A DNA stretch of 56,219 bases from a virus (IMGVR_UViG_3300045988_063094:1-56219), one strand, 5' to 3'; shown: positions 19,392 through 51,280, counted from the first letter of the stretch. Translations and numbers: made by a program. The notes: generated by a model from the letters alone, not told the origin.

Positions 19392-21056
19392 TCAAAAAGG
19401 CCTCTTGACAGGCTCAATTTTACTGATTCCGTTATATAATTCATCGGCAAGCTGTGCCAGACTGTCCGGTGCATCATCGTGCGGAACTTTGCCAAGCTGC
19501 GTGAACATCGTCACCTGTTCCATGAACGCTTTGTACTCTTTCGACTGGTGTTTTTCATCAAGGAAATAGAACCGTTTGATATCCGGCGCATACTGGATGA
19601 TTCTGGACAGCTTGCTTTGTCCGCTCGGCGCACGCTGGCTGCGGACAGAACAGTGGTATCCCTGCTGCCGGAGCTGGCTGTCTACCACATCGCAATATTC
19701 GTCACCGCCGTTGTTGGCTTCGCCACGCACCACGTTGATTTTATGCTGGATGATTTTGCCAACGACTTCCGGTCTGGTCACGGTCTTGTCGCCGTTATTG
19801 AACACAAGATCAGGGATGAACACGGCATCGCCGTACACATAAGCAATAGGGCAGGCGGTAAAGTCACCGCCACCCCATGCAATATCCATGACCATGAGCT
19901 TGCGATCGGGCTCACCATCAGGCAGAACGCCATTAAAATATCGCAGTTCATCGGCAGGGAAGAGCAGACCTTCACGCTCAACAGGTTGGTTCATGTACAA
20001 AGCTTTCCAACTCATTTCATCCATGACTTCGCGTTGCTTGCGGAGCGTTTCTGTGCTATATCCCACACCGTAGTCATAATCGAAGTTGGATTCGTCTTTT
20101 TCGTTCATTGCTGGCATAACAATAAACCTGTTCCTGTCGGAATCGCCGTAGTTTTGCTCTAATCGTCCGATAACATCATGGACAGACCAGCGTGTAGCAA
20201 TATGCAGTTCTTTGCACTTATTACCGATTTTTCGCTGTCTAAGGTCGGTTGTGTACGTTTCCCACAGCTTATCAAGGCGGGGTTTGGAAAGTGCCACTTC
20301 GATACCTGACACAAGGTCATCGCAGTAGAGAAGCGTAGATGCACGGTACAGACCAGCATTACCAGTGCCAATAGACGTAAATTCTAGCGTTTCAAAGCGC
20401 TTTCTCTTGCCCAAGTCGATGCGGCAGTCCTTCGCATTTGTGTTCGACACAGTAACGTCCGGGAAAACATCATTCCACAGGTATTCTCCGTCTTTGTCGA
20501 ATATACGCAAGCACTCGTCATAAACGCCACGCACAAAGCTGTTCGAGTGAGAGCCTGTAAGCATCGGTTCGTCAGGGTTTCTTCCTGCAAGCCATGTCAG
20601 ATAGAAAATAGCTAGAGCCGTCTTACCACAGCCGGGGGGCATCGAGATTGCCAGCAAGTCCAATCTGTCATCCGCAAGGTCTTGCAGGGCGTTCGCAACG
20701 GTTCTCAACACCTTTCTTCTCGGCTGATAGAACTTCTTCTCCGGCGCACGGTTCCATTCAAGGTAGATGCAATAGCTGTCAAACACATCCTTTGCTTCAA
20801 ACAGGTACGTCCGGCTGATAATGTCATAGACCTTCGCCACGTCCTCGCCTGTTTTCATCTTGCCCATCATGGCTGCACAGACAGAGCGCAGCTCACCAGA
20901 GTATTTGTAGGCATCGAACCGCTTGTCTTGCGGCAGAGCATCTCTCAGGTTCACGACCGCCTGAAACCAGTCCTCATATACCTGTGCTTCGGTCGGATTC
21001 TGCTTTGCATATGCTTTGATGCTGTCGATGATGGTAATGCACTGCTTTGGCTGCAT
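19392..21056 (-). CDS. terL: terminase large subunit
   Basis: Walker A PPGCGKT plus a C-terminal nuclease-type region. Start taken at MQPKQ (21056). Confidence 0.9.
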   Translation of the reverse strand: MQPKQCITIIDSIKAYAKQNPTEAQVYEDWFQAVVNLRDALPQDKRFDAYKYSGELRSVCAAMMGKMKTGEDVAKVYDIISRTYLFEAKDVFDSYCIYLEWNRAPEKKFYQPRRKVLRTVANALQDLADDRLDLLAISMPPGCGKTALAIFYLTWLAGRNPDEPMLTGSHSNSFVRGVYDECLRIFDKDGEYLWNDVFPDVTVSNTNAKDCRIDLGKRKRFETLEFTSIGTGNAGLYRASTLLYCDDLVSGIEVALSKPRLDKLWETYTTDLRQRKIGNKCKELHIATRWSVHDVIGRLEQNYGDSDRNRFIVMPAMNEKDESNFDYDYGVGYSTETLRKQREVMDEMSWKALYMNQPVEREGLLFPADELRYFNGVLPDGEPDRKLMVMDIAWGGGDFTACPIAYVYGDAVFIPDLVFNNGDKTVTRPEVVGKIIQHKINVVRGEANNGGDEYCDVVDSQLRQQGYHCSVRSQRAPSGQSKLSRIIQYAPDIKRFYFLDEKHQSKEYKAFMEQVTMFTQLGKVPHDDAPDSLAQLADELYNGISKIEPVKRPF

Positions 21057-21162
21057 AAAAAAATAGGCACCCCCTACCTGAAAATGTAAAGAGTGCCTAC
21101 AACTGCACAAAAATCAAATATTCGGTTTTATTCTAGGTTGCGAAAAACGTCAACTGAAAATA

Positions 21163-21727: not shown

Positions 21728-22393
21728 TTAGCGGTGGCTTGTGGTTGGGCTGCCGCTATTTTTATTTGCGTATCTTTCGACACGCTCATACCAAGTGGAT
21801 TTCCCGATGCCAAGTTGCTTGCAGCACTCTTTTACGGTAATTTTGCCTTTTTGCTGTTGCTCTAATAGGCTTTCAAACTGCTGCTCGTCAATTTGCTTTT
21901 CCTGTCTGCCAAAGCTACGGCCTGTTCTGGCCGACACTCTCTTGCCATCAACAATAGGCATGGCAGCTATACCCTCTGCCTGACGTTGCTTAGTTTTCTT
22001 GCGTTCCTGTTCAGCTACTGCGCCCAAAACCTCAATAAGGATGTTGTTCACCATTTCCAGCACCCATGTCTGGTCTTGGAAGTCAATCAGCGTAGTTGGA
22101 ATGTCAAGAATGCGAACAATCACGCCTTTTTCTTTGAACCACTGAAGTTCTCGCTTCATCTCGTCTTTGTCACGCCCGAATCGGTCAAATTCCTTAACGA
22201 TGACTTCATCCCCAGCCTTGACAGTCTCTTTCAATCGTTTATATTGCGGGCGATCAAAGCTGCTGCCTGTCATTTTATCACAAAATACATTCTCGTCCGG
22301 GATGTCGAACCGATCTCGTGCGATTTTAAGCTGTCTTGCAAGGCTTTGCTCCTTACTAGACACTCTAGCTAAGAAGTAACGCATTTTTTTCAC
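21728..22393 (-). CDS. small serine recombinase (resolvase/invertase family)
   Basis: N-terminus YFLARVSSKEQSLARQ (catalytic Ser context), DRFGRD motif, C-terminal HTH. 221 aa, too short for a large serine integrase. Confidence 0.85.
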   Translation of the reverse strand: MKKMRYFLARVSSKEQSLARQLKIARDRFDIPDENVFCDKMTGSSFDRPQYKRLKETVKAGDEVIVKEFDRFGRDKDEMKRELQWFKEKGVIVRILDIPTTLIDFQDQTWVLEMVNNILIEVLGAVAEQERKKTKQRQAEGIAAMPIVDGKRVSARTGRSFGRQEKQIDEQQFESLLEQQQKGKITVKECCKQLGIGKSTWYERVERYANKNSGSPTTSHR

Positions 22394-26900: not shown

Positions 26901-27331
26901 TTTACAATGCCCCTTTCTTACGGTCAAGTATAGCACAGATTAGACCAGGAAAGGGGGCCTTTTTGCTGTTTTTAATTTTTTGACGCTTTGCACAGAACAA
27001 GGCCTTTATTTTTGTGGGTCTTTTTTATTTTTTTCGGTGGTGACGGAACTCACCTACCCCACCCCCGGCGTTCCCTGTATACCCCGCCGGTGCACCCCCT
27101 GCCCACTCCAGCGCACCCGAAGCGACGGCACACGACAGGCAGCAGGGCAGGCCGTGCCAGATGCAAGGCAGACCACGCCACGCACCGACACACACGCCCA
27201 GACGCTGGACACGCTGCACCGATCTACACTCGATACCAGACAGGCCACGCGGGGCGATCAGGACGGCGGCGGGGGCTGGACTGCCTGCTCAGTGCGTCCG
27301 GCAAAGTGTACAATTTCGGACGCTTTATTTT

Positions 27332-27420
27332 ATCCATATTTATATGGATATATTTTGCTGAAAGCATTGACAATCCATATATATATGGATATAATATAAT
27401 CAGTCCAGATAAATATGGAC
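27332..27420. promoter_or_regulatory. three 18-bp palindromic operators ATCCATAT-NN-ATATGGAT
   Basis: Copies at 27332-27349, 27373-27390 and 27403-27420 (the third is imperfect: GTCCAGATAAATATGGAC). Confidence 0.6.
27367..27395 (+). promoter_or_regulatory. consensus promoter for the 27458 operon
   Basis: TTGACA, 17-bp spacer, TATAAT. The spacer is the middle operator. Confidence 0.6.
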
Positions 27421-27457: not shown

Positions 27458-27781
27458 ATGAAAAGAACCTCTAGTATGACCTATCACGAAACAGACGAGA
27501 GCAGAGAGCTTGAGCTGTACACCACCAACAACGGCGGCTTGTACCGCCAAATGATAACGCCCATTATTAACAACCTGCGCAAAAAGTACCAGCGCGGAAC
27601 CTATGACGCAGACAAGGCCGTTGACCTCTGGTATAACGTAGCTACTGAGGGGGCAAAGCTGTACAATAAAGAGTTTGGCAGCGACAGCCGGTGGAGCCGC
27701 TTATTTAACGTCCAATGCCGCTATACTGTGGCGGTCAACCTTGAGAGCTACTATAAAGAGGAGGTAGAGTACAATGCTTGA
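27458..27781 (+). CDS. hypothetical protein
   Basis: 107 aa, GGAGGA RBS. Confidence 0.6.
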   Translation: MKRTSSMTYHETDESRELELYTTNNGGLYRQMITPIINNLRKKYQRGTYDADKAVDLWYNVATEGAKLYNKEFGSDSRWSRLFNVQCRYTVAVNLESYYKEEVEYNA

Positions 27782-27873
27782 TGCAACTCAAATTTATGCC
27801 CTCTGGTACGTGGGCGGCATGATTTCCGGGGCGTTGGTTATGCTGGCATGGCTTAATAACTGAGGTGGGCGCA

Positions 27874-28173
27874 ATGAAACTTGTTATAAATTATAACCAA
27901 TACAAACTCCTTGATTTACTCGTTTACCGCGCTTCCCTTTTGTCCGACACATTAAAATATGAGCCAGACAACAAAAGTCAACTGTCTACTGATAAACGAC
28001 TATTTACGATTGCCGTAAAAAAGGTTGACAGTGCAAAAATCCCGGAGCAAGTAAAAAATCTTGTGATTTCTATTGGCAATAACTGGGCAAAATATACATC
28101 CGACGCTTTTGATTTTTTACTTCGTGACGCAGGTGTTTTAATCGAAGGCAGCACACATTTTAAGGAGGGCTAA
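27874..28173 (+). CDS. hypothetical protein
   Basis: ATG at 27874 with a GAGGTG RBS. Confidence 0.55.
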   Translation: MKLVINYNQYKLLDLLVYRASLLSDTLKYEPDNKSQLSTDKRLFTIAVKKVDSAKIPEQVKNLVISIGNNWAKYTSDAFDFLLRDAGVLIEGSTHFKEG

Positions 28174-28176
28174 AAA

Positions 28177-28440
28177 ATGACGTTGTTTGAAGAAAAGGTG
28201 AACGAGTACAGGGAAAACAAGCGGCTTTTAGAAGAGCTCGAAGCAATGAACGAAGCAATCAAGGCAGATATTATTTGCATGATGCAGGGCGCGCCGGAAA
28301 TGGCTCAGGGTACGGCAAAAGCTATCTATAAAGACGTTCAGAGCGTCCGGTTAGATAGCAAGCTTCTGAAGACGCTGCACCCGGATGTTTACGCCGAGTG
28401 CAGCAGCAAAACCACCTACAAGCGTTTCAGCGTGGTATAA
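28177..28440 (+). CDS. hypothetical coiled-coil protein
   Basis: 87-aa ORF with a GGAGGG RBS. Confidence 0.55.
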   Translation: MTLFEEKVNEYRENKRLLEELEAMNEAIKADIICMMQGAPEMAQGTAKAIYKDVQSVRLDSKLLKTLHPDVYAECSSKTTYKRFSVV

Positions 28441-28560
28441 AGGGGGTGCAAGCTGTGATTTTATCCGCAATTTTGTTCTTTTTTTGGTTTTTCCAGGCAC
28501 TGTTTAAGGCGTCCAAATAAGGACGCCGGAACACACTTATATAATATGGAGGGTTACACA

Positions 28561-28722
28561 ATGACTAACACTAATAAGGGATATGACATCAATACAGGGC
28601 TGTACAGCTCCCGCTACTATGCTCGCAAGGCCGCAACCGGCGCGGAGGTTGTCGTTAAGATCTGCGGCGGTTATACCATTATGACGGCAGCAGATTATAA
28701 CATTTGGCGCAATCAGCGCTAA
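28561..28722 (+). CDS. small hypothetical protein (53 aa)
   Basis: ATG with a GGAGGG RBS, co-oriented with its neighbours. Preferred over the antisense ORF 28537..28764. Confidence 0.4.
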   Translation: MTNTNKGYDINTGLYSSRYYARKAATGAEVVVKICGGYTIMTAADYNIWRNQR

Positions 28723-28835
28723 CAATTTTGCCCCAGCCCAAAAGGGCAAAAATATTTCTTGCAAGTCCTGTTAATGGGGCTTGCGATATGATATACTATA
28801 AAAAAGGGCAAAAGCCCAGAAAAGAGGGAAAAATC

Positions 28836-28991
28836 ATGTTAAAAGACGTTTCTAGCAGCGCAGCCGCCCTGTATGATGGAGGATGGAGAAGCGCAGACGC
28901 TGACCAACTCCGCACAGAATACGACTTGACAGAAGAGGAAGCGCAAGAGCTTTGCGCCGCCCTTGCAGATCTTGAAGAAAAAAATAAATAA
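28836..28991 (+). CDS. small hypothetical protein (51 aa)
   Basis: ATG at 28836 with a GAGGGA RBS. Internal start of ORF 28704..28991. Confidence 0.45.
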   Translation: MLKDVSSSAAALYDGGWRSADADQLRTEYDLTEEEAQELCAALADLEEKNK

Positions 28992-28997
28992 TTCCTA

Positions 28998-29027
28998 CCC
29001 CGCCCACGCTGGCGGGGCTTTTCTTTT
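28998..29027 (+). terminator. rho-independent terminator
   Basis: CCCCGCC cacgct GGCGGGG followed by CTTTTCTTTT. Confidence 0.75.
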
Positions 29028-29605
29028 GCCTTGCATCTGCTGAGGGTGCAGGGCTTTTCTTTTTGGCCTGCAACGTATCAGCCACGCGCAAGCGTTTACA
29101 GCGGCCTTTCTGCCGTCCATGCAATTCGCCAAAACCGTTTACAGGGCTTTACAGGGGTATTTCCATTGATTTGCCCCATTCCAGCACACACAATACAGCA
29201 GCCGCACAAACCGCCTATACACCGCCAGCGCAGCACCGGAGGGCATACCGTCAAACGTAGTACCTGCACCAATATCAGATACCACCGACGCGCCGAACGC
29301 CATACAGACCAGCACAACCGCCCTATTATAATAAGTTATATAAGGGTGCGGCTATGCGCCCTGTTATGGATCTATGCCCGGCGGTGCAGCATAGCGCAGA
29401 CCATGCCAGCCCGGCGGCGGTCTGCTCCTATCATGTGCGGATTGCTGGCAAGTGTTGACACACTGTCAGCAGTACAGACCCGGCGCACCTACTGAGGGGG
29501 TCAACGTCTCCACCTGTACAGGGTCAGCCCGGCGGCTTGCGATCTGGCACCTGGTCAGCCCGGCACACTCCACCCGGCGGAGCAGTCCAGCAGCGAGCGG
29601 CCGGA

Positions 29606-30715
29606 ATAGTCGTAACAGCTTCTGAAATAGTCGTGGAATAGTCGTAAAGTCGTCAGACGACTACTGCTTGAAAGCCCTATATATAGTATAGTAACGGCTG
29701 CTCGCTGATAGTCGCAGAGCAATAGTCGTAATATTTTCTTGCGAATTATCGACAAATAGTCGTGTATTTTTTGTGTGAAATAGTCGTTTGCCTTTTAGGA
29801 AAATGGAGATGCGATAGTCGCTAAGTCATCAGACCGCATAAAATTCATAATCCATTGCATATATTCACTTATTTATTCACTCGCTAGCCATACCAAATTC
29901 GTATACCAACCGTACTTATTGTAATATACGCTTATATATCCTAGTAACTATCTAGGGATTATTCTGCTAGAATAGTCGTATCATCTAATTCGGTCCGTTC
30001 CTGCTCGATTTAATTCCCAGCAATGTGCTATGATATTTCAACTAATCCATACTACTTTGCTATGAATAATTATGCCTGATAGTCGCAGTCAAGCTATGCA
30101 ACATTTGTGCATATCCAACCGACTACAAAATGAAGTCAATTCTCCATGTGAAATAGTCGTGGAGGGTGGCAGGTCAGATGCCGTTGCCCTTTATAGGCTA
30201 GATGCCGTTACCGTTGGAGGTCACCCGGTCGGCGCGGTGCGCCGGACGATAGAGGGTGACGTAACGTAGAGGTCAGATTGACGGTATGCCTTTATCCAGC
30301 TAATAGAACCTGACGGCAGATGCTGGTAACGGTCTGCTCTGCTGGCTAACGGCGTAGCTTTGGAGATAGAGGGTTGTAGGGGGAAAGAACCTTTGCAAAG
30401 CATCCGGTTGTCGTTTCCGGTTGTCGCACCATTTTGGCGTGGGGGCCTCAAACAATTTATTTGTTTGAGGGGGGAGTTAGGGGGATTATAGGGGGTAATA
30501 GGGGTTGTAGGGGAAAGAGGGGGAAGAAAGGGGGGAAGATTGGATGCGGACGCATCATGTGCATTCATTTGCATGCAAACGCATCACGCTGATAGTCGTA
30601 GCCATATCAGCTCAAACTCCGCTCGATCGAGACGGCTCCTACTCAAATCCAGACCTTGCCGTTTTCCCATGATAAATAACAAGAGAAAAAAGCACGGAAT
30701 AGTCGCAGAGGGTAG
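29606..30715 (+). repeat. field of 13 co-oriented ATAGTCG(Y) repeats in non-coding DNA
   Basis: Cores start at 29606, 29627, 29638, 29708, 29722, 29756, 29780, 29814, 29972, 30079, 30153, 30592 and 30709. A palindromic variant AGTCGT-cag-ACGACT lies at 29648-29662. Confidence 0.85.
30361..30540 (+). repeat. G-run / TAGGGG repeat tract with an embedded perfect hairpin
   Basis: Nine runs of G4-G6 and five TAGGGG copies. The hairpin CCTCAAACAA-tttat-TTGTTTGAGG lies at 30446-30470. Confidence 0.8.
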
Positions 30716-30779
30716 TTTTACCACCTGATACCATTCCATGCTTTCTGATACAGTAGTTTTGTAGTCATACAAGCTAAGA

Positions 30780-31082
30780 TTAGATATTCTTGGCTTTTCT
30801 TGCCTTACGCAGACGCTCTGCCAGTGTTTCACGCTGCTCTTCGCTGATCTCACGAGTGACAGGCGACCGGAACTTCACAAGACGTTTCGGCATCGAATAG
30901 GTCTTGGATTCCTTGCACCGCTTGGCAGACAGCTCCGCCATAAACTTGTACGTATCGGGGAACTGCTCACAGAGCTTGTCCAGCTTGCGAATGTAAACCG
31001 GGTCTGCCGTGTAGATTTCTGCGGTATCTTCCGCTGCGTTGAAGTTGATGATAGTCTCACGTTCGATGTTGGTGATTGCCAT
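30780..31082 (-). CDS. hypothetical protein (last gene of the early operon)
   Basis: 100-aa ATG ORF. Confidence 0.6.
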   Translation of the reverse strand: MAITNIERETIINFNAAEDTAEIYTADPVYIRKLDKLCEQFPDTYKFMAELSAKRCKESKTYSMPKRLVKFRSPVTREISEEQRETLAERLRKARKAKNI

Positions 31083-32436: not shown

Positions 32437-33101
32437 CGCAGAAAGTCTCCCTCGTCAGGCAATTCAGCCATTGTGTGCTGATAGCCACCGTTCCAGTCCT
32501 TCACGTTACGCATCCAGTTCCGTGCAGCAGCTTTCCAGTCTTTCATAGGCGACTTGCCGACTTTCCAGCCATTCGCCGTGAAATGGTCAACGAACCGCTC
32601 TGCTTCTGATTCTGTGTAACCCTTGTCCGCAAAGTATTCTTTGGCTTGCTCGATAGTCGGTGCCTTGAAGCGTTTGACTTCGTTGGTATTTTTCTTTTCA
32701 CATTTTTCTTTTTTATCAGATTCAGATACAGAATCAGATACAGATAAGGCATCGTTTGCATCCATTTGCATATTTTGCATACCAGTGTATGCGTTTGCAT
32801 CATTTGTATGCGTTTGTATGCACTTGCATTTTTCATCGTTCCAACGCTTATTTGCACTCCGTCTGTTTTTCTCAATTCGCTCCTGTCTTTTCTGCACGTT
32901 CATATCATCGAACGCCTTAACGACTTTCCAAAGCATCCGCATAGCACGGTCGTTGTCGTATGCTGGCTCAAGTCCAGTCTCAACGTAGTGTGCGTAGTTG
33001 CGGACGAACGCTCCAAATTCCTCGTCCGTCAATTCGTCCATCGCATGAACGTGTTCCAACAGAAGAATCATTGATGTTCTAGGCTTGTGTTCCTGCTCCA
33101 T
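32433..33101 (-). CDS. putative replication organizer / helicase-loading protein
   Basis: Directly upstream of DnaB with overlapping stop/start. The C-terminus (FTANGWKVGKSPMKDWKAAARNW) is typical of phage DnaD-like organizers. Contains an internal DNA repeat array. Confidence 0.5.
   Translation of the reverse strand: MEQEHKPRTSMILLLEHVHAMDELTDEEFGAFVRNYAHYVETGLEPAYDNDRAMRMLWKVVKAFDDMNVQKRQERIEKNRRSANKRWNDEKCKCIQTHTNDANAYTGMQNMQMDANDALSVSDSVSESDKKEKCEKKNTNEVKRFKAPTIEQAKEYFADKGYTESEAERFVDHFTANGWKVGKSPMKDWKAAARNWMRNVKDWNGGYQHTMAELPDEGDFLR
32755..32829. repeat. array of seven TTTGCAT/TTTGTAT motifs inside the organizer gene
   Basis: Motifs start at 32755, 32765, 32774, 32794, 32803, 32813 and 32823. 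Two adjacent CAGATACAGA copies lie at about 32723-32744. Confidence 0.75.
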
Positions 33102-35665: not shown

Positions 35666-35865
35666 TTCCTCTGCCCTCTCTTTCCCCTGTTGAACCGTCC
35701 AATCACTCGCTTGTACTCCGCATAGCAATCCGGACACAGGTCGCCTGTGTCCCTGCGCCACGCCCAGTCTTTGAAGTATTCGTCAGGGTTCATCATTCTG
35801 CCGCTCAGAACCGCTCCGCAGCGGTCGCACACTCGCTTGTGGTAGATTCCTCTGTCAGTTTGCAT
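35662..35865 (-). CDS. zinc-ribbon protein (paralog of 52662..52862)
   Basis: CDRCG ... WRRDTGDLCPDCYAEYK. Confidence 0.6.
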   Translation of the reverse strand: MQTDRGIYHKRVCDRCGAVLSGRMMNPDEYFKDWAWRRDTGDLCPDCYAEYKRVIGRFNRGKRGQRK

Positions 35866-36613
35866 CGTCTGTCACCTCTTTGTACTCCACATCAATCCCC
35901 TTCGGCAAAGCCGTCTGGTACTTCTGGGCGAGCTGTTCTGCGCTCTGAGCATCACCCAACGGCTGTTCAGGCGGCGCAACGGTAACTTCCACGTTGTCAC
36001 GCATACCAAAGTAGTTCTTGGCTCGGAAAATCCACTCTGCCGGGTTCTCTTGACCGTACATACCGTTGTACGCCCACATGGACTGCATTTGCAGAATCAG
36101 CTTGAGGATGTATTTCTGCTGCAAGCTATCGTCACGGCGCTTCCCTGCCATAATCTGCTTCAGGCTCACCCATTCGATGCCCAGAACTAGTGCAATCCAT
36201 TCCACAACAGGGGAGATTCTAGCTTCGATGCAAGCGTCAAAAAAGAAGTCAAGGCGTTGCTGCACTTCAATGGGGTTGTTCATGTCCACGCTCGGAAGGT
36301 CGCCAAAATACTTTGCCGCAATCATGCCGACAACTTTCTTATCCTCTTCATCACCAATTCTCGACTGCAAATCGCCTGTGTTCAGCATCTTAGACCTCGT
36401 GATTGCTAACTCCTGTTGTTCTTTCACCTTTTTACTCACCTGTGAGCGGATAGATTTCCGCTTGTTAAGCATCTGTTGCTTCTTCTTCTCACGCTCTTTC
36501 TCGCGTTTCGCAGCGGCTTGCTCTTTCGCCTTTTGCGCTCGCTTCTCACGCTTTTTCTTTTCAGCTTCGGTCAGCGGCGGTCTGCCACGACCACGCTTCG
36601 GGGGTGTTGCCAA
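35855..36613 (-). CDS. basic DNA-binding-type protein (possible small-terminase-like; uncertain)
   Basis: N-terminus KRGRGRPP (AT-hook-like) plus a Lys/Glu-rich tract. The C-terminal domain is of unknown family. Confidence 0.6.
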   Translation of the reverse strand: MATPPKRGRGRPPLTEAEKKKREKRAQKAKEQAAAKREKEREKKKQQMLNKRKSIRSQVSKKVKEQQELAITRSKMLNTGDLQSRIGDEEDKKVVGMIAAKYFGDLPSVDMNNPIEVQQRLDFFFDACIEARISPVVEWIALVLGIEWVSLKQIMAGKRRDDSLQQKYILKLILQMQSMWAYNGMYGQENPAEWIFRAKNYFGMRDNVEVTVAPPEQPLGDAQSAEQLAQKYQTALPKGIDVEYKEVTDDAN

Positions 36614-47893: not shown

Positions 47894-47927
47894 TTGTCGA
47901 ATTATCGCAGTTTTTGAAGAACATTTT

Positions 47928-48470
47928 GTCCACGTTCATCCACTTTTTGTACACCTATCGGGCAAATTCGCCTTGTCATTCCGTCCCCCATAGACTGCAA
48001 ATCGACAACATTCGCGCGGAATAAATAACGAATTATCGTCAATCTATTGCTTGCGATTGAGTGGTTCGTCAATCCGTCCCCCATTGTGCAGATTAGGTAT
48101 ACCTTTCCATCCACTTCTTGTACACCTATCCACAATCCGTCCACGTTTGGTATACCTAACGTTGAACCGTGTCTACCATTGGAATCTACCGTTCTTGTCT
48201 TATTTAGCAATGGCTTTTGATACTGTTTTCAACAAAGAAAAAAAGAAAAGAAAAGTTTTTGTGGAAAATTCTACTACTTCCTATTAGTAGAAGATATTTT
48301 AATATCTTGTTTTAACTCTTGTTTTATATATAGTAAGAACGTGGACAAAAAATGGATGAACGAGGACGGATTGTGGACGAACGAGGACAAAATATTCCAC
48401 AAACGAGGACGAATTGTGGATGAACGTGGACGTTATGTATTGACTCGTCCTCGTAACGGTGGTATAATAG
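47928..48470. other. plasmid-type replication origin: phased iterons, inverted copies and an AT-rich core
   Basis: Five TGGAYGAACGWGGAC-type iterons end at 48346, 48367, 48388, 48410 and 48431 (21-22 bp spacing). Inverted copies occur at e.g. 47928-47942 and 48130-48143. An A/T-rich tract spans 48200-48335. Confidence 0.65.
48440..48468 (+). promoter_or_regulatory. rep promoter overlapped by an inverted iteron half
   Basis: TTGACT, 17-bp spacer, TATAAT. The spacer contains GTCCTCGT, the reverse complement of ACGAGGAC. Confidence 0.55.
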
Positions 48471-48503: not shown

Positions 48504-49595
48504 GTGTCAGACATCAAAGGAGGCAATCTGATTGAGAAAAGCCGACCTCTTGTATGGGCGAAATTCAGGGACTACACGGCTGGCGAACTTCGTCTGTTGG
48601 AAGTCTACTTGTCAAGAATCAACCCTCGTGACCCTGAAACGTCAGCAGTCAGATTCACGTTGAAAGAATACTGTGATTTTCTGGACATCAAAATTAACTC
48701 AAGGAATTTGAAAGCGCAGGTCAAGCACTTTGTTAGCAACTCTGTGGAAGTTCCTAGAGGTGATAAGGCTGGTTCTTATGACATCTATCCCCTGTTTGAC
48801 CAAGCGTCTGTCGAATTTGATTACAAGTTAGCTAATTTCTTTATCACGCTTAGCTGCAATCCGAAACTGCGTCCTGTTTTCTTCGACATCGCCGAAAAAG
48901 GATACGTTAGATATCGTCTGCGGTACACGGCAAGTATGAAATCGCAGTACAGTATTCTCTTGTATTCAATCTTGCGTGACATGATAGGTCGAGGAATAAA
49001 AACGCCTGAAATTACAGTTGAGAAGCTAAGAGAACAGTTAGGAGCGAACGAACCGAGCTACAACGAATATCGGTATTTGCGAAAGCGAGTTCTTGATGTG
49101 GCGGTAAAGGAAATCAATGAACTGTCTGACTTGCAGGTCGATTATGAGCGTGTCATCATTGGACATAAGGTTGTATCAGTGAAGTTTAACGTGCATCAGC
49201 ACACAGAGCCGGTCATAGATGCCGAATCAAGCGAGGTTAGCGGTTCGTCCTTGAAAGATGTTCCTGAAGACCAAAGGCCTGTTAAAAAGGCTCGCAGAGG
49301 TGCGTATGAAGATGTTGACTGGGCATCCATTGCTCCAAGACTTACGGAAAAGCAGTGCATCGAGATTGCAAAGTCCGTTGCAAAGCGCATCAAGGAAAAA
49401 TACCCAAACATAAAACAGAACAAAAAGAAAGAAGCAGTTGTAAATATCGTCGAGAACGCTTATCGAATCATTATTGTCGATGGTGAAGCGGAGCGAAAAG
49501 AACCGTTGAAGAATCCGGGGGGGTACTTGTTCAAGACGATTGAAAAGACAGACCTTGATGATTATGCTACATTTGACGATAGCTTCTTGAAGTAG
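48504..49595 (+). CDS. Rep_3/RepB-like plasmid replication initiator
   Basis: GTG start. LIEKSRPLVWAKFRDYTAGELRLLEVYLSRINPRD has the layout of iteron-binding initiators and lies directly after the iterons. Confidence 0.7.
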   Translation: MSDIKGGNLIEKSRPLVWAKFRDYTAGELRLLEVYLSRINPRDPETSAVRFTLKEYCDFLDIKINSRNLKAQVKHFVSNSVEVPRGDKAGSYDIYPLFDQASVEFDYKLANFFITLSCNPKLRPVFFDIAEKGYVRYRLRYTASMKSQYSILLYSILRDMIGRGIKTPEITVEKLREQLGANEPSYNEYRYLRKRVLDVAVKEINELSDLQVDYERVIIGHKVVSVKFNVHQHTEPVIDAESSEVSGSSLKDVPEDQRPVKKARRGAYEDVDWASIAPRLTEKQCIEIAKSVAKRIKEKYPNIKQNKKKEAVVNIVENAYRIIIVDGEAERKEPLKNPGGYLFKTIEKTDLDDYATFDDSFLK

Positions 49596-49627: not shown

Positions 49628-50407
49628 ATGGCAAAAATTATAGCTGTTGCTAACCAGAAGGGCGGCACAGGAAAGACCACAACAAGCACCTGTCTGACTG
49701 GTGCGTTGCAGTTGCTTGGCAAGAAAGTTCTGCTTGTGGACTGCGATGCCCAGTGCAACGCAACGGACACCTACGGTGCACAGACAGAGGACGTATGCAC
49801 CCTGTTTGACGTGATGACCCGGCAAGGTACGGTCGAAGAAGGAATCCAGCACTGCGAAGCCGGTGACATTCTGCCGTCAGACAACGCATTGAAGGACATT
49901 GACGAGCAGCTTGTTCGGGACATAGGCAAGAACTTCCGGCTGCGTGAAGCGCTGGAACCCGTGTCTGCACAGTACGATTACATTGTTTTGGACACTCCCC
50001 CGCAGCTTGGTCTTGCACTTGTGAACGCTCTGATCGCCGCCAACAGCATCATCGTACCCATTACAGCAGACCGCTATGCGCTTGCCGGACTGAGCCAGCT
50101 TTCGCAGACCATCGGTGATGTTCACAGATACTTCAACCCGACCTTGAAGATTGAAGGTCTGCTTCTGAACCAGTACAAGAGCCGTGAGAATCTGTCCAAA
50201 GAGGTGGTGGAGCAGCTTCCTGTGATTGCACAGAGCATGGGAACAAAGCTGCTTGACGTGAAGATTAGACCGTCTATGGGCGTTCGTAAGGCACAGGCGG
50301 AGCGGCACAGCCTGTTTAGCGGTGACACGGCAAAGAGCACCAGCGCAGAGGACTTCAAAGAGCTGGCAAAGAAGATTGTAGAGGGGGATAAAAATGCGAC
50401 TGATTGA
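49628..50407 (+). CDS. parA: ParA/Soj-type partition ATPase
   Basis: Deviant Walker A: AVANQKGGTGKTTT. Confidence 0.85.
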   Translation: MAKIIAVANQKGGTGKTTTSTCLTGALQLLGKKVLLVDCDAQCNATDTYGAQTEDVCTLFDVMTRQGTVEEGIQHCEAGDILPSDNALKDIDEQLVRDIGKNFRLREALEPVSAQYDYIVLDTPPQLGLALVNALIAANSIIVPITADRYALAGLSQLSQTIGDVHRYFNPTLKIEGLLLNQYKSRENLSKEVVEQLPVIAQSMGTKLLDVKIRPSMGVRKAQAERHSLFSGDTAKSTSAEDFKELAKKIVEGDKNATD

Positions 50408-50711: not shown

Positions 50712-51280
50712 AATCAACCAGCAAAAAATCCTCTGGCTTGCTTGGCGGGTTTGATTTTCAGCCTATTTTTTCGGAACAAACATTAAGCCGAAGTGAGCCA
50801 AAGGAAGAAGAAGTAAGCCAAACAAAGCCAAATAACGCCGAACGAGAGCCAATTAAGCCCAGTGAAGCCGTAAACAGCCATGCACAGCCAAGTGATGCTG
50901 AATTAAGCAATATTAAGCCAAAGCAAGCCAAAGACAGCGAAAGACAGCCAAATGATGCTGTATTAGGCAGAGGTAAGCCGAAGAAGCTGAAACAGGCAAA
51001 GGAAACGAAACGGCTGATTGAACAGGGCAATATTCCCGGCGCACTAGCCGAAGCTGGCTTGACAAAGAAAAAAATCCCGATGCCGGAATCGCATCAGGGT
51101 GTTGCAAGCGGTGACGGCAAGCGGTCTAAGCGCATTACCATCCTTATGAGCGAGGAGGAACGCAAGTACATCAACCGTGAAGCCAGACGGCACGGAATGA
51201 CCATCGGGCAGTTTGTGTACGCTCTGGCTGCTGCGGCGGCAGATGGGAAGATTGAACTGGAAGATTTCTTGGAGGAATAA
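50708..51280 (+). CDS. protein with a C-terminal ribbon-helix-helix (ParG-like centromere-binding candidate); the N-terminal part is encoded by the decamer array
   Basis: ATGA overlap and a GGAGGA RBS. C-terminus KRITILMSEEERKYINREARRHGMTIGQFV. An alternative short form could start at the ATG of MPESHQG (about 51082). Confidence 0.55.
   Translation: MKSTSKKSSGLLGGFDFQPIFSEQTLSRSEPKEEEVSQTKPNNAEREPIKPSEAVNSHAQPSDAELSNIKPKQAKDSERQPNDAVLGRGKPKKLKQAKETKRLIEQGNIPGALAEAGLTKKKIPMPESHQGVASGDGKRSKRITILMSEEERKYINREARRHGMTIGQFVYALAAAAADGKIELEDFLEE
50781..51000 (+). repeat. about 22 tandem 10-bp units, consensus AAnnAAGCCA
   Basis: Written in 10-nt blocks from 50781, the units align in register. 13 of 22 carry AGCC at the same position. 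One 11/9 compensation occurs near 50841-50860. Confidence 0.85.

Follow-up and report, generated by a model that had tools for sequence, protein, structure and literature searches.

Repeats of the heptad ATAGTCG, all oriented in the same direction, are conserved across hundreds of gut phage genomes. In the genome considered here, analysed as a window that comprises the whole 56,219-nt stretch of viral DNA, the field that they form is probably a pac-type recognition array that the phage's small terminase (TerS) would read. Fundamental to this interpretation is that terS alone, among the matches listed, is a constant neighbour of the arrays across lineages. From these sequence comparisons we infer the binding of TerS, the stoichiometry of its ring, the position of cleavage and headful packaging. 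How a small terminase searches out viral DNA is a long-standing question, and what is notable here is the exactness of the heptad, its copy number and its conservation across the very divergent terminases of human-gut phages.

The initial annotation had described thirteen copies of ATAGTCG on the + strand, and a recount bears this out, with all of them co-oriented over 29606-30705. They start at 29606, 29627, 29638, 29708, 29722, 29756, 29780, 29814, 29972, 30079, 30153, 30592 and 30699, the last having been placed wrongly at 30709. The palindromic variant AGTCGTCAGACGACT at 29648-29662 and the recurring extended contexts around the heptad were both found as previously described. All thirteen copies match RATAGTCGY exactly, a sequence with one exact occurrence elsewhere in the genome, where versions with one mismatch show no enrichment, and a frequency matrix of the repeats extends to about 11 informative positions, S-N-R-ATAGTCG-Y-R. 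When both strands of the window are counted ATAGTCG is present 16 times, against an expectation of 3.6 +/- 2.0 from dinucleotide-preserving shuffles (n = 100), none of which (0/100) reached 16. The enrichment belongs to the field: the three remaining copies (1761+, 27997- and 32653+) are at chance level, so that the one inside the organizer gene, which had been singled out earlier and is indeed present at 32653, requires no special explanation. From the rate outside the field, the probability of at least 13 copies in 1.1 kb of one strand is about 2e-30, and ATAGTCG is the top locally enriched 7-mer genome-wide.

The ends of two operons, a rightward early one and a leftward one, bound the field, which is laid out with its flanks and its candidate binder as follows.

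28998..29064, + strand: tandem intrinsic terminators, 28998-29027 then 29028-29064, both highly conserved
29066..29600, unstranded: conserved GC-rich noncoding left arm, C-skewed on the + strand
29606..29820, + strand: main cluster of 8 exact RATAGTCGY copies (29606 to 29814)
29646: AAAGTCGT variant within the main cluster
29658-29663, - strand: inverted TAGTCG within the main cluster
29830..29960, unstranded: AT-rich segment, prone to melting or bending, that separates the main cluster from the distal copies
29972..30159, + strand: distal copies 29972, 30079 and 30153
30115-30121, - strand: inverted TAGTCGG among the distal copies
30293..30400, unstranded: conserved block 7, 93-95% identity in relatives
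30370..30535, + strand: G-run/polypurine cluster, TAGGGGG-type, about 8 runs
30540..30590, unstranded: TTTGCAT / ATGCAAACGCAT repeats, of the same type as inside the organizer gene
30592..30705, + strand: two outlying copies, 30592 and 30699, directly downstream of the 100-aa gene
30780..31082, - strand: 100-aa protein, phrog_1709
35855..36613, - strand: candidate TerS, P22 gp3-like / GP3_package family

The terminator proposed at 28998-29027 proves genuine, and a second one comes after it at 29028-29064; with these two the rightward early operon ends, and transcription is kept out of the field. The left arm contains three TTTACAG motifs (29094-29155), CAGCCCGGCGG repeats and an AT-rich quasi-palindrome at 29321-29346. 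As had been claimed, the 1.75 kb at 29028-30779 hold no credible ORF; no codon periodicity is seen in the substitutions across a 73-sequence alignment of the region, and independent gene callers place zero genes in it in the relatives. Block 7 forms the right edge of the constant noncoding block, beyond which the sequence is mosaic. The G-run cluster, within which a hairpin at 30446-30470 has a compensatory variant in some relatives, belongs to the variable part, which is likely associated with the replication origin. The leftward operon has the order terS-like gene, small genes, Lar, DUF6291 organizer, DnaB and 100-aa gene.

The region is shared by over 119 contigs of IMG/VR and by three contigs of faecal phages in GenBank, and 73 non-identical relatives with 73-86% identity to the window over the block were aligned. 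Every one of the 73 keeps 7-16 copies on the + strand and essentially none on the - strand, and in all of them ATAGTCG is the top repeated 7-mer (73/73; mean 10.7 copies). The earlier suggestion of a binding-site field is thereby upheld, with an exact, co-oriented motif whose copy number and orientation are conserved in every relative examined; the functions proposed with it, namely an origin, a partition or silencing site and a structured RNA, fare less well, as is set out below. The main cluster (29600-29830) is nearly invariant across the 73 relatives, and since its spacers are as invariant as its repeats, more than recognition of the heptad is constrained. The distal copies fall within the conserved blocks 29960-30030 and 30096-30165, copy 30079 being specific to the window's lineage, and the conservation track reveals a window-specific insert at 30165-30290. 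The outlying copies at 30592 and 30699 are retained in relatives with the same replication module as the window (type A, below), and L012-type relatives also have ATAGTCG copies after the G-run cluster, in a non-homologous context. The AT-rich segment is poorly conserved in sequence, with a conserved low duplex stability. Positions 29842-29961 make up the fourth least stable 120-bp interval genome-wide, the second being the unwinding element of the plasmid oriV, which served as a positive control, and the least stable interval of the block is found at 29820-29868 in 72 of the 73 relatives.

What accompanies the motif outside this family? IMG/VR was scanned, in two scans and by motif alone, for ATAGTCG triples at spacings never used in the window's family. 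With tandem minisatellites set aside, this gave at least 112 co-oriented, irregularly spaced, non-tandem arrays with several distinct spacing signatures, which occur in many unrelated phage lineages. Among the matches listed for these 112 loci, homologues of the window's proteins were present for the 252-aa protein at 35855-36613 (49 loci), TerL (43), the serine recombinase (31), the portal (25), the 100-aa protein (18) and the 87-aa protein (17). A jackhmmer search raised the number of listed loci with a TerS homologue to 88 of 112 (E 1e-37 to 1e-91), and clustering of the ORFs within 3.5 kb left TerS as the sole universal neighbour among those matches, the second commonest family being found at 42 loci, about -2.5 kb away. 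The geometry is equally constant among the listed matches: measured from where the main cluster ends, the stop-side end of terS falls at -103 to +144 nt in all but one locus, most commonly at +1, +2 or -21, and terS is opposite in strand to ATAGTCG in all 87 of 87 clustered cases. In several lineages the array overlaps the coding end of terS. Main clusters contain 4-13 copies (median 7, among the matches listed) and whole arrays up to 19. The 24 listed loci without TerS are nearly all minisatellites, loci with short flanks, or members of a small environmental group that has copies on both strands.

In the reverse direction, both of the two TerS homologues that were retrieved by protein search alone (MT837742 and MT836871) carry the array, in the form of CGACTAT/RCGACTWT arrays directly at the terS 3' end. 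A related-locus search based on the TerS alignment yielded members of the window's own family and no others, which makes it unusable as an unbiased reverse test. No cultured relative that carries the array was found; by TerL (53%) the nearest cultured relative is Clostridium phage Maintenon, whose TerS is 26% identical and which has no array, and the RTP-like replication terminator annotated in it is absent from the window. A scan of isolate-genome contigs with the family's motif-containing conserved 27-mer and with the organizer protein gave zero matches, as did a comparison of the window with a plasmid collection, and literature searches gave nothing relevant on ATAGTCG as an iteron or on gut phage-plasmids.

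The usual gene order at these loci is (100-aa gene), terS, array, small genes, HNH/serine recombinase, terL and portal. The window's family keeps this order with a mosaic replication module and the 100-aa gene placed between terS and the array, such that in the window the two are 5.15 kb apart in the same relative orientation as elsewhere. The genetic link to terS that is expected of a pac site is thus seen in the other lineages and is looser in the window, where the position of the array beside replication genes, unlike in the other lineages, counts against a packaging role. The second feature expected of such a site, repeated or bent DNA, is present as 8 + 3 (+2) exact co-oriented repeats around an AT-rich segment. 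In one further relative (L408), where TerS is only 36% identical, the gene layout is window-like and 9 copies are found in a gene-free region. The 100-aa protein has a homologue just upstream of terS in several other lineages, but it is missing from many array-bearing phages and so is not a universal binder; its structure model gave no significant fold match. Within the window's family the only universal nearby products are an 87-aa endonuclease-fragment-like protein (28177-28440) and a 29-aa peptide, and searches of NCBIfam, Pfam and PHROGs returned no function for the small neighbour proteins.

How well does the 35855-36613 protein answer to a small terminase? Its GenBank homologues carry this annotation, it matches the annotated TerS of Maintenon at E = 9e-7, and it aligns over its full length with the PF16677-annotated P0153 (phmmer, E = 2e-36, 36% identity). 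It has no direct Pfam match at E <= 0.1; members of its jackhmmer family, which numbers 88 among the matches listed, score 43 bits against a GP3_package cut-off of 29.4 bits. Clustering of these 88 listed proteins gives 19 groups with less than 60% identity, and their identity to the window's protein is 21-30%. The best PDB match of an AlphaFold model (pLDDT 75.8) is the P22 nonameric small terminase 3p9a, a weak and non-significant match (E = 1.4) with a probability of 0.72 and a target-normalised TM-score of 0.52-0.56, and a profile search of PDB sequences gave 2ao9, a phage protein deposited with nine chains (E = 0.004). Within the window's family TerS is 97% conserved (median), which fits the invariant motif, with the neighbouring replication proteins being swapped between relatives. 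The predicted HTH recognition helix is GIEWVSLKQI in the window and GVDRKTLWAW in the family consensus, yet the motif is identical, a discrepancy that would be awkward for simple HTH-motif recognition.

In the packaging scheme that we propose, the P22 gp3-like TerS (35855-36613) would form a ring, judging from its family, in which P22 gp3 is a nonamer, and each subunit would contact one RATAGTCGY site in the 8-copy cluster at 29606-29820. The distal copies (29972-30159) may assist, with the DNA wrapping or bending around the ring. TerL (19392-21110) would then be recruited for a first cut nearby, plausibly within the low-stability AT-rich segment at 29830-29960, which is a candidate cleavage region like SPP1 pacC, and headful packaging would start from this cut. 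On such a scheme the segment is likely a region of cleavage or bending rather than an unwinding element. The copy number of the main cluster (4-13, median 7, among the matches listed) fits within the sizes of small-terminase rings. The present 5 kb between array and terS would have arisen by insertion of the replication module.

Packaging sites of other phages offer partial parallels. The likeness to P22 is that the candidate binder probably belongs to the same Pfam family, GP3_package, with P22 gp3 (3p9a) as its top, non-significant fold match, that the recognition site lacks symmetry and has a genetic link to terS, and that arrays overlapping the coding end of terS in several lineages resemble a pac inside gene 3, where the P22 site reportedly lies. 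The differences are that P22 pac is a single 22-bp site inside that gene, whereas here there are 4-13 (up to 19) exact units of 7-9 bp at or after the terS stop, or 5 kb away in the window, and that the unit is common to TerS proteins that are only 21-36% identical. In P1, also a phage-plasmid, pac is said to consist of seven TGATCA/G hexamers flanking the cut site, and a short repeated oligonucleotide on both sides of a cleavage region is shared with the present case. The P1 hexamers, however, are palindromic Dam methylation sites inside pacA, whereas ATAGTCG is asymmetric and co-oriented and corresponds to no known methylation motif. Direct repeats in pac also have a precedent in SPP1 and SF6, where sets of them flank the region of cleavage, and a wrapping of the DNA around an HTH ring has been proposed (PMC4737164). 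The succession of 8 copies, AT-rich segment and 3 copies parallels pacL-pacC-pacR of SPP1 (PMC4737164), but SPP1 pac covers the promoter and 5' end of terS, with only two copies per box, and even SPP1 and SF6 show poor conservation of these boxes, in contrast to the present repeats, which are numerous, exact and preserved in distant lineages. In SPP1/SF6, the most thoroughly studied Gram-positive system, the isolated DNA-binding domain of G1P shows little sequence specificity for the pac repeats (PMC4737164).

This last behaviour, together with the mismatched recognition helix, the invariant spacers and the want of an array-bearing cultured phage, makes a host factor or another protein at the same junction a serious rival, although on balance we regard it as rather unlikely. 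According to this explanation some other conserved factor, either of the host or a small phage protein, binds the array at the junction of terS and the late genes, where the array would insulate against transcription or block its passage, or would regulate the late or packaging genes, and would not be pac. That the motif is identical beside terminases with only 21-36% identity, and beside the differing helix of the window, is most easily explained by a host factor. The field is also flanked by terminators and by C-rich stretches that face incoming transcription on both sides, and the motif behaves in an all-or-none manner, degenerate copies being absent from the window. On the other hand, among the matches listed, the arrays of different lineages are accompanied by no other protein family, and the strict abutment on the terS stop with a fixed orientation is what would be expected of a cis site inherited with terS.

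An origin of lytic replication, in which ATAGTCG would provide iterons or accessory sites flanking an AT-rich unwinding element near DnaB and the organizer, was the first of the functions suggested initially, and it now appears improbable. The window taken alone does resemble the iteron origins with which it was compared (lambda ori in gene O, SPP1 oriL/oriR, SaPI ori and P4 ori/crr), in that short direct repeats flank an AT-rich segment beside a helicase gene. In its family the field always adjoins a DnaB-containing replication module, the adjacent AT-rich segment has the low, conserved stability (72/73) of an unwinding element, and repeats of the organizer type are present in the same intergenic region at 30540-30590. 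Iterons, however, co-vary with their initiator, and here no such co-variation is seen. The module to the right of the field is a mosaic of two non-orthologous types: in type A the DnaB is that of the window (about 95% identical) and is accompanied by the DUF6291 organizer, whereas type B combines a DnaB of only 48% identity with a divergent DUF6291 protein and, in addition, a RepA_N/HTH_36 protein, and the identical ATAGTCG field stands beside both.

Each initiator, moreover, carries different repeats of its own. The organizer gene has TTTGCAT-type repeats at 32749-32829, next to an AT-rich stretch, a second allele of the organizer is distinct in its central cassette only, where GGTAT/CGTATC-type repeats are present instead, and the RepA_N-like gene has three 23-bp internal repeats. 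Both types of organizer repeat recur at 30540-30590, and it is likely that the initiator sites are repeats of this kind, those at 30540-30590 included, and not ATAGTCG. A scan of the field for DnaA boxes found a single box with one mismatch, which is unconserved, and distant DUF6291 homologues (L123-L125) have no ATAGTCG arrays. Replication genes accompany the repeats in the window's family only; at the 88 loci of other lineages, among the matches listed, the array abuts terS instead. An origin-accessory role within the window's family is still conceivable.

A second partition (centromere) or silencing site of a plasmid prophage, which had also been put forward, is highly improbable. The element does look like a phage-plasmid, since it has a Rep_3 plasmid initiator and ParA and lacks an integrase, and contigs with genes of the family, which reach a maximum of about 100 kb, are never chromosomal; short direct-repeat arrays are moreover typical of centromeres. 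The Rep_3 initiator has its own iterons at 47921-48440. ParA (49628-50407), though, is located 19 kb from the field and adjoins its own 10-bp-phased AGCCRAA array at 50786-50985, so that the field is neither adjacent to parA and centromere-binding genes nor demonstrably served by them. Its spacing is irregular, and ParA does not recur near arrays elsewhere, where the recurrent window proteins, among the matches listed, are only TerS, TerL, portal, the serine recombinase and the 100-aa and 87-aa proteins.

Least credible of all is a noncoding RNA of large size, either structured or serving as a sponge, with repeated AUAGUCG (or CGACUAU), for which a conserved 1.75-kb noncoding region, a strand-specific motif and the lack of an intrinsic terminator after the 100-aa gene, which makes leftward read-through across the field possible, could be cited. 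Against it, Rfam, searched for the large RNAs ROOL, GOLLD and HEARO as well and at both gathering and relaxed thresholds, gave nothing relevant, fold z-scores of the region were -0.6 to -1.25 on both strands and carry no thermodynamic signal, RNAalifold on 53-68 sequences of the 73-sequence alignment produced no consensus structure over most of the region beyond a few short hairpins with zero covariation, no sigma-70-like promoter was found inside the 1.75 kb although at 27333-27419 the phage does use a promoter of canonical form, TTGACA-17-TATAAT, which is accompanied by three palindromic operators, and in other lineages the array overlaps the coding end of terS.

Returning to the pac-type array, its spread invites the more tentative proposal, which we put forward as a possibility of modest weight, that ATAGTCG is a packaging code which small terminases of over 20 lineages, in phages and phage-plasmids of gut Clostridia, have in common. 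If so, the same signal would be read by differing terminases, and cross-packaging of unrelated phages, phage-plasmids or any array-bearing DNA would become possible, amounting to a built-in form of piracy or mobilisation. In the window's family the signal would be uncoupled from terS and placed beside a lytic origin region, where it might couple replication to packaging. The 7-19 exact heptads at terS would offer a clean, sequence-specific test of the model in which a ring reads a repeat array. Were the assignment true, sequence alone would allow the prediction of pac sites in a large group of human-gut phages that are uncultured, a search for pseudo-arrays would flag host or plasmid DNA prone to generalised transduction, and engineered particles of gut phages could be given designed packaging signals. 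To annotators, the case is a warning that a repeat field beside replication genes is not necessarily an origin.

Of the roughly 15 listed array-bearing contigs that are stored whole, 3 terminate no more than 150 nt from the array, a count made by eye that gives only a weak hint of a packaging start there. The window itself has a 67-nt terminal overlap and is therefore a complete circular assembly. It encodes a small serine recombinase, two regulators of the Ant/Rha type with a CI-like repressor, and a methyltransferase that is a C5-cytosine enzyme, and its structural module, with TerL (19392-21110), portal, major capsid protein and tape measure, is on the - strand.

As a whole, the genome looks like that of a phage-plasmid. 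The elements that relate to this character are as follows:

47921-48440: Rep_3 iterons GTGGAYGAACGWGGAC, in direct and inverted sets
48504-49595: Rep_3 (WH1-WH2) initiator
49628-50407: ParA
50786-50985: AGCCRAA repeats, about 11 copies, phased at 10 bp or multiples of it

The iteron sets flank a very unstable AT-rich segment (48215-48334). The AGCCRAA array is found directly past parA and a 105-aa gene, in the 5' portion of an ORF that ends in a NikA-like ribbon-helix-helix domain. It represents a candidate centromere, which would be embedded in, or lie upstream of, the gene for its centromere-binding protein. There is no integrase in the window, and none of the contigs of its family was seen embedded in a chromosomal contig. 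The assembly is taken to be circular because of a terminal overlap of 67 nt. With regard to likely hosts, the evidence points to the Clostridia, since homologues of the 100-aa protein (30780-31082, minus strand) are present in MAGs labelled Lachnospiraceae, Eubacteriales and Butyrivibrio (P0212, P0229, P0231 and P0275) and the TerL has a 53% similarity match to a [Clostridium] innocuum phage.

To the left of the field of ATAGTCG repeats lies a rightward operon (27458-28991). A 270-nt noncoding stretch (27040-27310) that is GC-rich (62-69%) and C-skewed comes ahead of the following promoter:

27333-27419: canonical promoter, TTGACA-17-TATAAT, overlapped by three copies of the palindrome TCCATATWTATATGGA

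Presumably the operon is transcribed from this promoter under the control of a repressor. The 87-aa protein encoded left of the field (28177-28440) is universal, being present in 89/89 eligible loci, and homologues are also located near the arrays of 17 loci from other lineages, on either strand. It resembles YqaJ/RecE-like phage exonucleases in their C-terminal part (phrog_434; the JGI name is 'predicted phage-related endonuclease').

Some of the sequence to the right of the main repeat cluster varies among relatives. One component is an insert of around 130 nt (30165-30290) with internal repeats AGRTCAGATGCCGTT, which is shared by the window and a minority of relatives (e.g. L010, L048), where most other relatives have about 40 nt. 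Beyond the insert lie two further features:

30370-30535: G-run cluster, about eight G4-G6 runs of the TAGGGGG type, polypurine on the plus strand
30446-30470: 10-bp hairpin within the G-run cluster

In the relatives L009 and L037 the position of the hairpin is occupied by another hairpin sequence, CATGAAATAG/CTATTTCATG, a change that is a compensatory replacement. The cluster reappears in relatives of the L012 type in a non-homologous context and is missing from those that have the RepA_N gene. Candidate roles are those of a rut site in leftward transcripts and of an R-loop or origin element. Two GenBank virome contigs of the family also break within the G-run/hairpin segment (MT839567 ends at about 30482 and MT836051 starts at about 30524); either mosaicism among strains or a fault of assembly at this point might explain the breaks.

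Variation extends to the replication genes. The DUF6291 organizer gene exists as two alleles that differ solely in a central cassette, residues ~82-132 (window 32688-32830; L005, L013, L017, L029, L116 and others), the DNA of which bears either TTTGCAT-type or GGTAT/CGTATC-type repeats, depending on the allele. Both repeat types recur in the intergenic segment 30540-30590, to the right of the G-run cluster, and all four of the possible combinations are seen among relatives, such that in many phages the repeat type of the organizer gene is not that of the intergenic segment. Type-B relatives encode, in place of the 100-aa gene, a 239-aa RepA_N/HTH_36 protein (L068 4460-5179; also L007, L010, L014), the gene for which contains three 23-bp repeats, GAGGTGAAYGATTGTTCMCCTC. 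This protein and the organizer of the window have a common C-terminal domain (40% identity), which also occurs in phage replication proteins of the DUF4373 type from Vibrio and Porphyromonas phages.

Finally, among arrays in other lineages, four environmental IMG/VR contigs (L142, L180, L181 and L194) form a separate group, in which RATAGTCGY is present 8-19 times on one strand and a further 6-10 times on the other. A search for a TerS homologue in these four detected none, although the flanking sequence was adequate, and the group may represent a different use of the motif. Elsewhere, in 42 loci, the array and terL are separated by a gene some 2.5 kb away from the array:

21728-22393 in the window (e.g. 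also L138, L162, L171, L248, L265): small serine recombinase or AP2/HNH-type endonuclease gene

This gene is an unusual insertion that separates terS from terL.
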